This document shows, in pieces, positions 1 to 61,603 of a DNA stretch of 61,603 bases; positions within the stretch are counted from its first letter, which is position 1, and each line of letters opens with the position of its first letter. The DNA is from Carcharhinus longimanus (Eukaryota), in assembly GCA_030264375.1 (NCBI GenBank), contig JASCQW010000128.1, positions 14,390,588 to 14,452,190 of the forward strand. The letters run 5' to 3'. Both the position numbers and the translations under genes were made by a program. Below the pieces are notes generated by a model. That model had not been told where the DNA came from. It did not search any database and saw nothing but the letters and a program-made list of their open reading frames with translations.

Positions 1-1483
1 GATGCTTTGGAGAGCCTTAGGATGAGCCAGCTTATTCAGGATAGCAGCACAGAACATGGTAGGGGAATGAACTACGCAATTGGCCCTTTTGTAGTTTGAG
101 TTTATGCAGTAAGTTCAAAGAATTATCATTTAATCATACAGCATACAACAAAAAGGAAATCATTCAGCCTATTGTATCTACCAGCATTCTGAAAACGCTA
201 TCCTTTTTCCCCATTACTTTGCAGGGTTCCCCTTCTCAAATGTATATCCAATTCGCTTTTGAAAGTTACTATTGAATCAACGAATTCTGCTTGTTCACGC
301 AGTGCATTCCAGATCATAACAACAAAATTTCACTTCAATTCACGTCTGGATTATTTTATTTTAGCTAATTAACTTAAAATCTGTGCTCTCTGATTACTGA
401 CCTTCCTGTCATGGGACATTGTCTTTATGGAAGCCCCATACAATCTCGACAATGTGTATTAAATTTTCATCCTTCTCGGTTTTAAGGAGAGTAGTCGCAA
501 CTTCTCTGGTTTCTCCAGATAACCTGAAGTCACTCACCAATTGGTAATAATTTGGTAACGTGTTTTGTCAATGTGAGCAAAATGCGTGGACATGTATGGT
601 TCCCTGAAGGAAACAATACTGACGTTAGAATTCAATTTTAAAGAGGAAAAAAAAACAAATCTTTTGCGACTGCAGTTGTGAGCCATCCTTCATGGATTGC
701 AGCCGAACACAAATTGGTTTAGTGTCAATGCTGGAATCTGGCATTGCTCTAGTATTGCACCCTCACTGACAGTCTTGTTACTGTGACTACATCTTGGCAA
801 AGGGGCTGGAGAGCAGGACTGCAGGAGTCTTGGTTAATTGGATCCAGATGCCCTTGCTCATGTATGCTGATGGCATTACGATAGCTGGCCTTTGGCTTTC
901 AAGCAATGCTCGAGTTTGAGTTGGTCTCTGCGCTTCGACAATTAACAAACAATCAGTGACACTAAAATTGCAGCTGTTTAACATTTTAACTCAAGTTCTC
1001 ACTCAGCAAGCGTGCCAGTGTCGGCAAAGTAACATTTGTACACATTTTCAATTTTAGTGTGTTGACTAGCACCAAAAAGGTATCAGAAAGCACCTTCAGA
1101 CCGGCAGCAGGCTTCAGGTAGCTCGAGCAGCTTTGTGACTATCACATGAAATAATACAAGTTGTAAATGTGTTCTTTAATNNNNNNNNNNNNNNNNNNNN
1201 NNNNNNNNNNNNNNNNNNNNNNNNNNNNNNNNNNNNNNNNNNNNNNNNNNNNNNNNNNNNNNNNNNNNNNNNNNNNNNNNNNNNNNNNNNNNNNNNNNNN
1301 NNNNNNNNNNNNNNNNNNNNNNNNNNNNNNNNNNNNNNNNNNNNNNNNNNNNNNNNNNNNNNNNNNNNNNNNNNNNNNNNNNNNNNNNNNNNNNNNNNNN
1401 NNNNNNNNNNNNNNNNNNNNNNNNNNNNNNNNNNNNNNNNNNNNNNNNNNNNNNNNNNNNNNNNNNNNNNNNNNNNNNNNNNN

Positions 1484-1665
1484 GTTTCCTCTGGGTGCTC
1501 CAGTTTCCTCTCACAGTCTGAAAGACATGCTGGTTAGGTGCATTGGCCATGCTAAATTCTTCCTCAATGTACCTGAGTAGGCACCGCAGTGTGGCGACTG
1601 TGGGATTTTCGCAGTAACTTCATTGCAGTGTTAATGTAAGCCCACTTGTGACAATAATGAAATAA
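1484..1665 (+). mobile_element. HE1/V-SINE 3' part with alternative tail (tail B)
   Basis: V-domain 'gtttcctctgggtgctccagtttcct...gccatgctaaatt' followed by 'gtgtggcgac...cagtaacttcattgcagtgttaatgtaagcccacttgtgacaata'; 5' end lost in N gap. Confidence 0.8.
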
Positions 1666-2572
1666 ATTGGAAGATGGCCAACACTGTAGATCAGAAGAAT
1701 TATTTTCTCACTGAACTTGTTGGACTATGTGCTGCCATTTATCTGTGTTTGTATTTTAACAGCAGCGGCTTGCATTTATATAACGCCTTTAACGTAGTGA
1801 CAATGTGAACTTGTGTTGTAGGTGATTGTTCCCAATGTAAACAAACAGTGAGGACAATAAATGTGAGAATGGAGTTGTCAGTTTGACTCAACACAACATC
1901 TGAGACACATTTCATGTGGTAATAGGTTTGAAGCTTGGCAAACGCCCATCTATTACCAACCAAAATTTTGTGTTCTTTATCTCCAAGAAAAACAGTATAA
2001 CTCCTCTCCTGAGGCCAGTAAATCGGCATTTAGGAGAAAACCATAGCAGTAGAATCCCTTTAGACATGTACTTAATAGTGGTTGTTTGGAAAGAAACTTT
2101 TTAAAATTGTCATTGGATTGTTAACGTAAACATAATTCCTCCAGATTCTCTGCCAGAATTTTCAGTGCTTCCTAATGTCCCTGATGAAGACATTTTCCAA
2201 TGCTTAACTTACAGATAATGTGTTATGGACTATTTGCATGATTAGAATAGATAACAAAATAAACAGATGTAGGCACCTGGACTTTTTAAAGGTATAGATA
2301 GTAACCGCATAAATAAACTATTTCTTGAGAGAGAAATCAGCAGTTTCGAAAAAGGCAAAATCAACATAAGTGCAATAAGTATTTTTAACACCTTCAGCTG
2401 CAGTCATTGTTTCCAGTAATCCAAGCCCATTCTTCCTCCACCTCCTTTCCACATTCATCATTTGAAGATTTGAGCAGTATTTCTAGTGTCCTAATGCACT
2501 ACAATCCTTCTTGAAGTGTGACAAAAAAATTGAATTGCCTTCCTCCACCCTCATTGTTAGTTTTTTGATAAA

Positions 2573-2916
2573 TCATAGAATCCTTACAGTGCAGAAGGAG
2601 GCCATTCGGCCCATCGAGTCTGCACCAAGTCTCTGACAGAGCATGTATACGTAGTGGGATAAATATGTGGGGCACATTTATTTAAATGTAGCCCCATTTA
2701 TTTAACCCACTAATCGACACACCTTGGGACACTAAAGGGAAAATTTAGCATGGGCAATTCACCTAATCGGCCCATCTTTGGACTGTGGGAGGAAACGAAG
2801 CAGCCAGAGGAAACCCAAGCAGACATGGGGAGAACATGCAAACTCCACACTATCACCCAAGGCTGGAATTGAACTCTGGTCCCTCGTTCTGTGAGGCAAC
2901 AGTGCTAACCATTGTG
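2573..2916 (-). mobile_element. HE1 SINE (tRNA head, V-domain, CR1/HER1-type tail A)
   Basis: Reverse-complement head 'gcacaatggttagcactgttgcctcacag', V-domain, and tail 'atagaatccttacagtgcagaaggaggccattcggcccatcgagtctgcac'. Confidence 0.85.
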
Positions 2917-4741
2917 CAAAAACTGTTATGCACTAAATCCAGTTACATTCTAAAAGATAAATTAACATAAATGAAGTAGTGAGTCTTCCCTTTCCATGAG
3001 CGAGTTAAAATAATTAAAGTGAGCAGCTAGTTAGACACAGTAATAGTGTTTAATTTTTCACTTGTAAACTCCAGATCAAATCTCTGTCTATGCTGTGACT
3101 AACTGTCAAACATGCATTAGAGATCTCACCCAGTTGTCTGGAGAGGAATGGATTGAAAATCAGGGGAGGGAGACCAGCCCAAGCAATAGCTTGTGGATGT
3201 GGAAGCTGCCTAGGGTGGAGTGGAAGGAGAGAATAACTGGGATAATAAGTTAGCTTCAATTTTTTCAGTTAAATTGAGGATAAGTAGGATATGGTGGTTT
3301 GTAAAAATTGTGTAATGAGTGTATTAAGTCATGTGATTGCAGCATCTGAGATAGCACTACTTGTAATGTGCAGAAATGAAGAATGCTGGAGTTTAGTGGT
3401 CAGTTTTTTTGTTGTGCTTGTCTTGCATCAAGGGTGACCACTAACTAAACCAAAATGTTGCTAAATTTCCTGTTCTTGGTAACTATACTCATTGCAAATT
3501 GACCGCAGAATGTGTAGATGCTGGTATTTGTTACATTAGACTGGAAAATGCTTTGGTTGCTGACATNNNNNNNNNNNNNNNNNNNNNNNNNNNNNNNNNN
3601 NNNNNNNNNNNNNNNNNNNNNNNNNNNNNNNNNNNNNNNNNNNNNNNNNNNNNNNNNNNNNNNNNNACATTCATTGAAACCCTGATGTTACAATACTACT
3701 TGCAAAGTTCCCTGGCCTGTATCAGCGGTATGGCCAGTTTGCTAAGTGAATTTAGCACAGTTAATATACTGGTGAGAATAAGAGAGTGTTAAAAGATATT
3801 TGACATTTTTGTGTGAGGGTATGTCTGTTGGCCATTAGGAAAAAAAACTGTCTCTTTAAGTTAAAACCATTGATGAGTAATAGACTTATGATGTGGTGTC
3901 AGAAATGCTACTGTGTGCCTTTGGGGAAAGAGGGTTAATCCCAGGCTATTCAGACTGTTCAGCTTCCTGTTCTCCACCTCATTGGGTAACCTGAGACTCA
4001 GACTCTGCTACATCCTGCAGAAGCTTTTCTGTTGGCAGAATGTTAGCACTGTATTCGCCTGAGGCACTTCCACCACTAACAAACTGCAACAGGAAGGCTC
4101 CTAAGGGGTTCAGAGTACATTCAACAAAACAAATGAAAGCTTGGCAAAAATGAAGTACCTTTTCGAGAATATGTATCAAAGTTCCTTAAAATGAACGTGA
4201 CTCTTTGCTTTACTTGGCATGTGATTAACTTCCATTTTTTTTGCGATGACAAGTCACACTAAAAGAGTCTTTACTCTTGTGAATTTGAGATGCCTTCACT
4301 TGTCTCAGTGAGGATTATATAACTTGGTGGGACCCATCATCAGCGAGTTTGCAGTACCCTTCCATCTCCCTGATGCTCTCCAGCAGCTGAGAAGTCAGAC
4401 CACCTTGGCTGTAGCTTTTGTCAATGCTGCTAAATTGTCACTTGCTTTGGAACAACTGAAGGTCTCAATAATATGTATTTAAAATGTGTTTTTTAAAATG
4501 CAATGGTCATATGCTACCTGCAAATCTCTAGTAATTAATGTTGATGAGCATGCAATAGTTTTGTCTCGGTGTAAAGATAGGTTATTGTTGAATGAGACAA
4601 TCATCCATGATGTATATCCTAAGCACATAATAGACAAATACACATGTTTTAACTGTGGTCATTATGATTCTGATCTTTTGTTATTTCAACAATAAATGCC
4701 TTGTTCTCCTCTAATCCATATCACTGTGAATTCAAAGAATA

Positions 4742-38132: not shown

Positions 38133-38440
38133 TTTTTTTTATTTTTAATCCAATTCAGTCAAATCAAGTCCAATTCAGAGCCTCAACAAGTGAGGCATTC
38201 CCGATCCAACCTGACGAGATGCGGCTCTTAATCCCTGTCTGGGGCTTGATCTACATGACCCAAGCTGATTGGAGTAGGCATTGCTCCTCCTCCAAGGCTT
38301 GAACTCATTTGCATCTTAGCTAAAAGTCCGAGATGCCGCTTTAAAAATTGCTTCAAATGAAGCTAAAATTTAACCTAATGACTTCAACCAAGCACAGCAT
38401 GTCGATACTACACTTGATCTTAGCCAAAAGGCCAAGAAGC
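38133..38440 (-). mobile_element. U2 snRNA-headed, U2-derived retroposon (candidate SINE) with A-rich tail
   Basis: Minus 38440-38404 'gcttcttggccttttggctaagatcaagtgtagtatc' matches U2 nt 4-40 with 1 mismatch; second degenerate U2 5' copy at 38340-38313; A-rich 3' end. Confidence 0.8.
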
Positions 38441-61441: not shown

Positions 61442-61603
61442 ATAACTTCCTTTTGGCTACAATCAAGCGTCAGATCAGGTGCAGTTGTTTTCTTGTCAGC
61501 TTGGGTCTTGTGTCTCTCTATGATGGGGACCATGAATTGGATTCAATTTGAATTGGTTTTTGAAACAAGCAAGGAGATGGATTGAGGACTTGCCCTATCC
61601 ACT
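61442..61603 (+). mobile_element. Divergent U2 snRNA-derived element (truncated by the window end)
   Basis: Colinear with U2: cttttggcta, agatcaggtgcag, ttcttgtcag, gtctc..gggac (stem IIb), ggtttttg (Sm-like), ggagatgga..cttgccctatccact (stem-loop III). Confidence 0.75.

Follow-up and report, generated by a model that had tools for sequence, protein, structure and literature searches.

The window analyzed here, 61,603 nucleotides of DNA from Carcharhinus longimanus, carries on its minus strand a U2-derived short retroposon, one copy of a repeat referred to below as family A. From 5' to 3', the 313-nt majority form of family A begins with a head corresponding to U2 nt 1-40 and a fold-back; a second U2 5' end then precedes two hairpin modules and a derivative of stem IIb, and the A-rich 3' end consists of AATAAA and an A tail. 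The parts of the window copy are listed in Table 1 together with a truncated copy of a related repeat, family B; loci elsewhere in the assembly are designated by L numbers.

Table 1. Features identified in the window, with the basis for each where given
Feature	Position	Strand	Basis or remark
Family A copy	38133..38440	minus	U2-derived short retroposon
U2 head, nt 4-40, with intact GUAGUA	38404..38440	minus	36/37 identical to U2 genes L031, L032 and L034 of the same genome
Fold-back: inverted, wobble-diverged copy of U2 nt 25-39	38386..38400	minus	Predicted 15-bp pairing with head
Remainder of linker, with small hairpin and T5 run	38335..38385	minus	
Second, diverged U2 5' end	38305..38336	minus	0/1000 shuffles
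Hairpin module 1: basal and distal stems, akin to family B module	38257..38304	minus	Isolated fold z -1.99
Hairpin module 2: basal stem, stabilized derivative of U2 branchpoint stem-loop (U2 nt 24-48), U2 nt 49-61	38203..38251	minus	
Hairpin at U2 stem IIb position	38180..38196	minus	Collinear with U2 and family B
Short-repeat stretch inherited from family B	38149..38179	minus	Sm site and stems III/IV lost
Poly(A) signal and A-rich tail (tail 38133-38143)	38133..38149	minus	
Family B copy cut by window end	61447..61603 (start approximate)	plus	83% over 149 nt to family B majority form

Much of this layout had been anticipated from the letters of the window alone. The original prediction of a near-perfect U2 5' end with GUAGUA, a second diverged U2 5' end and an A-rich tail agreed with the present comparisons, while the intervening linker, put at ~60 nt, measured about 70 nt. 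The hairpin described at the place of U2 stem IIb does occupy that position but is not the family form, being a variant of the 7-bp stem of family A, in which pairing probabilities were 0.94-1.0 for six of the seven pairs. Similarly, the poly(A) signal is ATTAAA in the window copy and AATAAA in family A. A proposed check with the Rfam U2 covariance model gave 50.1 bits (gathering score 46) for the window copy with its head and no U2 match for the same copy without it; thus, the model alone does not show a U2 origin of the body. Abundant tRNA-type SINE copies, presumably an HE1-like shark SINE, flank the element at window positions 38840-38630 and 37830-37620.

Membership of the window copy in a multi-copy family, also foreseen, was evident from a genome search of the assembly, which returned 3,233 family A candidates; of the 40 that were scored, one was the window copy and the others were near-full-length copies, 39 in number, at 88-90%. 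An exact 16-mer at the head junction had 668 matches and another in the 3' hairpin 994, compared with 2 and 1 for controls. These counts and the number of candidates rule out a single-copy U2 chimera as the identity of the window element. The two 16-mers were present in 14/30 and 15/30 of the best 30 family A matches, the 3' word in 8/30 loci selected by the head word and the head word in 7/30 loci selected in reverse. The family totals about 2,000-4,000 dispersed copies, the range from word-share arithmetic being 1,400-3,700. Divergence from the majority form averaged 4.8% over 119 fragments (approximately 95% identity). The share of family A words in DNA runs of six coded organisms, one of which is possibly the assembly source, was 0.35-0.68; the share in RNA runs (0.07-0.19) was too small to serve as evidence.

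Among the 67 copies with both ends visible, 49 start at U2 nt 1-9. A proposed check for target-site duplications was positive for seven of these copies, which have exact duplications of 8-16 nt (control 6/600), five copies having duplications of 13-16 nt, but negative for the window copy itself. The 66 upstream flanks had nothing in common except neighboring SINE copies. No general target motif was noted downstream, where one of 67 flanks matched the U2 target at 9/10 and the mean match was 3.60 compared with 3.44 for background, which speaks against strict targeting. Runs of T4 and T5 inside the majority sequence would argue against transcription by RNA polymerase III, as was argued from oligo-T for crocodilian SINEU in the accessible text of PMC4494074.

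Family B, which came to light as a second element beside L083, gave 2,677 candidates in a genome search. Since a family B word had 1,062 exact matches and was present in 10 of the 30 best loci, the family numbers at least about 3,000 copies. Its layout is closer to that of a U2 gene. After U2 nt 1-36 comes a short insert in which U2 24-38 is repeated; U2 then resumes at nt 39 and runs to approximately 150-180, including stem III and an Sm-like T run, before AATAAA. Without its head, family B aligned to nt 39-end of U2 gene L031 with a score of 140.8 (shuffle maximum 71.4; 0/1000 as high) and to three other U2 types with scores of 90-101, and six of ten family B loci matched the whole Rfam U2 model (E<0.01). 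Family A beyond its second head aligned in turn to family B with a score of 116.1 (0/1000 shuffles). Identity of copies to the majority form was 88% for family B as opposed to 95% for family A, which indicates that family B is the older. At least four divergent U2 gene types (L031-L034) with unrelated upstream flanks occur in the assembly, as do 3'-shortened U2 variants with common flanks of their own (L046-L048).

With U2 as root, a tree built from 42 real copies (14 of family A, 24 of family B and 4 of U2, six short family B loci being left out) showed family A as one clade (100/100), placed with moderate support inside family B (85/87). A count of shared derived alignment columns (19 vs 18 vs 13) was set aside because gap placement spoiled it. 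Intermediates between the families were also noted, namely L293 and L300, which lack stem III, and L276, which lacks stem III and has two modules. Direct alignment of the family A body to U2 was modest, since 1-82 of 1000 shuffles scored as high for the whole post-head body and 0-2 of 1000 for a hand-picked 3' part; the U2 origin of this body is nonetheless firm because family B bridges it. On these sequence comparisons, the body of family A descends from U2 through the older family B of the same genome. The predicted derivation from U2 was thereby demonstrated, by way of family B and not by the Rfam model.

The second U2 5' end, which in majority form scored 51-52.5 against each of four U2 genes (0/1000 shuffles as high for each), is likely the head of an ancestral element; the copy at L211 (the same locus as L237) starts at this point without head and linker. 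In similar comparisons of the family A linker with U2 39-end, family B and nine U2 upstream flanks, no significant match was found, and derivation of the linker from U2 39-110, family B sequence or a U2 upstream flank was not supported.

Part of the linker was recognized from its pairing with the head. The predicted duplex of family A has a free energy of -32.3 kcal/mol (0/2000 linker shuffles as low), each of its 15 positions was paired in 94-100% of 82-86 copies, and both common variant positions preserve pairing; by DNA alignment alone, the likeness of linker to head was weak (243/5000 shuffles). Folded in this way, the linker would bury the branch-recognition GUAGUA of the family A head. 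One family A copy, L156 (minus strand), has A-to-G changes at 40 of 64 substitutions, an excess that may reflect editing of double-stranded RNA before copying. A U2 pseudogene, L054, is likewise rich in A-to-G changes as judged by eye.

The distal stem of each family A module follows the register of the U2 branchpoint stem-loop, which for human U2 includes G25-C45, C28-G42, U27-U43 and A30-C40 according to the available portion of PMC13019295. In the same source, A30G and U43A are stabilizing mutants tested in human U2; with U43A, expression in human cells was low and reporter splicing slight or absent. In family B, A30G with a G-C pair was present in 44 of 57 copies and U43A in 14 of 55, and in module 2 of family A, by alignment, both U27 and U43 are lost. 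GUAGUA is altered in family B, and the loop has drifted away from it. Module 2 of the majority form gave an isolated fold z of -3.04, whereas the basal stems of the modules were uncertain in the full-length fold (pairing probabilities 0.03-0.37). The check for covariation was largely negative, most tested pairs showing none within either family, as expected if the copies are dead. At two pairs of family B, changes on both sides did maintain pairing: C28-G42 was paired at a frequency of 0.78 (0.46 expected) and one stem III pair at 0.72 (0.45 expected). Taken as folding predictions, these results suggest selection on RNA structure.

Insertion of the element at the Keno/Utopia site of U2, which had been predicted, was seen at nine family A loci. 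A search for a tail-plus-U2 pattern gave 11 matches, compared with five control matches; four were unrelated and seven were family A tails joined to U2 nt 39 (L128, L131, L132, L134, L135, L136 and L137, with L134 read by eye), to which L060 and L107 add two junctions, the nine falling at U2 nt 39/40. The same 3' junction is given for Keno and Utopia in the accessible parts of PMC6136364 and PMC4640811. Four of the U2-joined loci continue for at least 70 nt into U2, of two types. At L134, a 5'-cut family A tail lies between U2 8-37 and U2 39-52, and at L137 the copy occupies a U2-like site with a duplication. At L128, L131 and L107, the tail is followed by U2 39/40-48 and then by a second A run, apparently the result of read-through and polyadenylation, or alternatively of insertion into a short U2 retrocopy, which would leave identical letters.

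Transcription from the U2 promoter, as put forward in the original prediction, received indirect support from the apparent read-through at L128 and L131 and from L141, where 17 nt match the upstream flank of U2 gene L031 at 15/17; such a flank precedes a U2 start at only three loci in the assembly, L141 among them. The promoter-bearing source did not appear: a search of the assembly, in which U2 arrays look poorly assembled, found no locus with U2 promoter, SINE and U2 3' part, and all U2-joined copies seen were without a promoter. Extra U2 5' pieces ending at nt 38-56 were noted at 11 loci, most of them selected by a U2 query (L003, L096, L141, L145, L148, L150, L151, L152, L156, L158 and L160).

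Other arrangements of U2 sequence were also seen. At L059/L063, a stretch at ~990-1100 that we take to be 5S rRNA-like stands directly before the U2 head of a U2-embedded family A copy; behind that head, this copy carries an insertion of 145 nt. Many L031-type U2 retrocopies among L035-L060 share one end approximately 40 nt past the mature 3' end and have no A tail. In a small U2 array (L061/L062), a LINE tail precedes nt 39 in one gene and a bare A run stands at nt 37/38 in the next, and a U2 locus with an L031-type promoter (L140/L244) is broken after approximately nt 17 by other sequence.

A companion LINE of 5.2 kb encodes ZCCHC3-like RNA-binding domains and a zinc knuckle in ORF1 and an endonuclease and reverse transcriptase in ORF2, the AP-type endonuclease domain scoring below the Pfam cut-off. 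From this ORF anatomy we take it to be Tx1-type; a protein search gave no match to a named Tx1 or Keno element, the highest identity (67%) being to a ray protein. Exact tail words of the LINE numbered 718, and more than 95% of copies of both the LINE and family A are dispersed. The LINE tail was found before U2 nt 39 at four of seven matches to a pattern that demands an A run, whereas none of 30 unselected LINE tails was followed by U2. Many of 30 LINE 5' ends carry U2 heads, one of them in a U2 array (L224).

Association of the two elements was evident from family A copies that abut the LINE at L211 (L237), L213 (the same locus as L236) and L226 and from tandem LINE-SINE arrays at L236, L237, L260 and L267. 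A family A head lay within 25 nt of two of 30 unselected LINE tails, compared with approximately 7e-5 per locus expected by arithmetic. In the proposed comparison of 3' ends, SINE and LINE were not significantly alike, their likeness being matched by 335 and 125 of 3000 shuffles. A short hairpin that follows U2 nt 35 directly at the LINE 5' end resembles the basal stem of the SINE, but this likeness was not significant in an unanchored test (162-801 of 3000 shuffles). At L236 (5317-5936) and L267, LINE tails are followed by tandem family A copies of a subfamily whose head-linker junction is altered.

We consider it likely, with a probability of roughly 0.65, that family A was transcribed from sources inside U2 genes and copied by the Tx1-type LINE using the same U2 site. 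Such a history would begin when a U2 paralogue, having acquired AATAAA and an internal duplication, came to serve as the family B source. Duplication of the module and loss of the Sm site and stem III would have given the family A core, whose fresh head and fold-back would have come either from renewed insertion in a U2 gene or from a template jump to U2 RNA. RNA polymerase II would start at U2 +1 under the external snRNA promoter, the RNA would be polyadenylated by virtue of AATAAA, and the LINE protein would reverse-transcribe it, mostly into unrelated sites. Under this hypothesis, dispersed copies lack a promoter and can become active only by landing in a U2 gene once more, and source copies would be renewed by such re-insertion. 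A fuller version, advanced tentatively and at less than even odds, is a cycle hosted by U2 genes in which the sources, either U2 paralogues or Keno-site re-insertions, borrow the snRNA promoter and in which the RNA would have been selected, over successive families, to lock the branchpoint stem-loop and to hide or erase GUAGUA, thereby stopping U2 action and maybe forming the signal for the Tx1 protein.

The ending of extra U2 5' pieces at many positions (11 loci, mostly from U2 queries) and the lack of a promoter at every U2-joined copy seen are what would be expected if most heads were acquired through template jumps to cellular U2 RNA, with sources under unrelated flanking promoters, as proposed for crocodilian SINEU-2 in the available text of PMC4494074, and with U2-embedded copies as later insertions in U2 pseudogenes. 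We regard this as unlikely, since the 668 exact matches all have their head-linker junction at nt 40, a constancy that must come from source copies, 5' ends pile up at U2 +1 behind upstream flanks that share no sequence, and the sole recognized upstream extension is a U2 gene flank (L141). Decidedly less probable is the same origin and transcription with an enzyme supplied by Utopia or an L1-like family. The Utopia 3' junction is that of Keno (PMC4640811, in the part available), the tails of SINE and LINE lack significant likeness, and five copies have duplications of 13-16 nt; on the other hand, the LINE tails among the seven A-tailed matches at U2 nt 39 belong to the Tx1-type family, and LINE and SINE stand in tandem arrays at four loci. 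Sources that are or were functional variant U2 snRNA genes, with copies that are processed pseudogenes and not a selfish SINE, would account for the Sm-like T run, stem IIb and stem III retained in family B, for its Rfam scores (6/10 loci) and for the changes on both sides of a pair that it shows once in the branchpoint stem and once in stem III. This explanation is very improbable given that GUAGUA is changed in family B and predicted to be buried in family A, that family A has lost the Sm site and stems III/IV, that neither AATAAA nor an A tail belongs to snRNA, and that U43A gave little or no reporter splicing in human cells (PMC13019295, accessible text).

Family A behaves like a SINEU and fits the description of that class. 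It is short (<500 bp), non-coding and A-tailed at its 3' end, was amplified from master copies, with a shared body and fixed head junction, as opposed to being a sum of independent chimeras, and has a U2 5' head and recurrent 5' addition of snRNA pieces (11 loci). It is not a U2 snRNA gene, which would be a collinear full-length U2 with an Sm site and upstream promoter. Accessible sections of the original account (Kojima 2015, PMC4494074) describe SINEU only from crocodilians and leave its transcription open because U2 has no internal promoter, and those of PMC5381603 mention snRNA-derived SINEs for crocodilians only. No shark snRNA-derived SINE was found in the literature searched; Repbase and Dfam, which lay outside this search, may well contain such a family. 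SINEU-1, -2 and -3 are likewise U2-headed and A-tailed, with oligo-T inside, recurrent U2 5' additions, mixed duplications and, as may also hold for family A, a presumed Tx1 partner itself able to carry U2 heads, and from the same available text family B resembles SINEU-3, a modified U2 gene, and family A the SINEU-1 subfamilies with added heads (PMC4494074). In contrast, families A and B are found in a shark and the family A body can be traced to U2 through intermediates. Family A junctions are at U2 nt 38/39, whereas SINEU prefers Mariner-N4_AMi, and no preference of that type was seen among the 66 upstream flanks of family A; the fold-back and stabilized branchpoint stem-loops go unmentioned in the SINEU text available (PMC4494074). 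The two families are best read as SINEU-like elements, probably with an origin separate from that of crocodilian SINEU, and family A is filed under neither SINEU-1/2/3 nor Keno.

With Keno (Tx1 clade), the shared feature is the identical U2 3' junction at nine SINE loci and four LINE tails (PMC6136364 and PMC4640811, as accessible). Family A is non-coding while Keno, like the companion LINE, encodes an endonuclease and reverse transcriptase, and Keno is described in those texts as U2-specific while the SINE and LINE reported here are more than 95% dispersed, insertion before U2 nt 39 accounting for 1/67 SINE flanks and 0/30 LINE tails in unselected sets. Utopia (NeSL clade) uses the same U2 site, and its reptile families show a similarly weakened specificity, but its endonuclease is restriction-like (PMC4640811, available part) as opposed to the AP-type domain, below the Pfam cut-off, of the companion LINE. 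U2 processed pseudogenes and template-switch chimeras, also present in this genome, are one-off copies of U2, unlike families A and B, whose derived bodies are common to thousands of copies.

Four findings go beyond what had been predicted: family B, the fold-back in the linker, the derivation of the modules from the branchpoint stem-loop, and a LINE that is a candidate partner. Elements of this kind can be mis-annotated as U2 genes, as the window copy exceeds the Rfam gathering score. Natural stabilizing changes recorded by the two families in the U2 branchpoint stem-loop also correspond to mutants made in the laboratory. In this shark genome, two related families can be followed step by step from U2 gene to SINE, some copies occupy the U2 insertion site, one retains upstream sequence of a U2 gene, and a LINE stands as candidate partner; the question of how SINEU is transcribed thereby becomes testable. 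A U2-hosted cycle, if true, would explain the transcription of snRNA-headed SINEs and show a second origin of the class.
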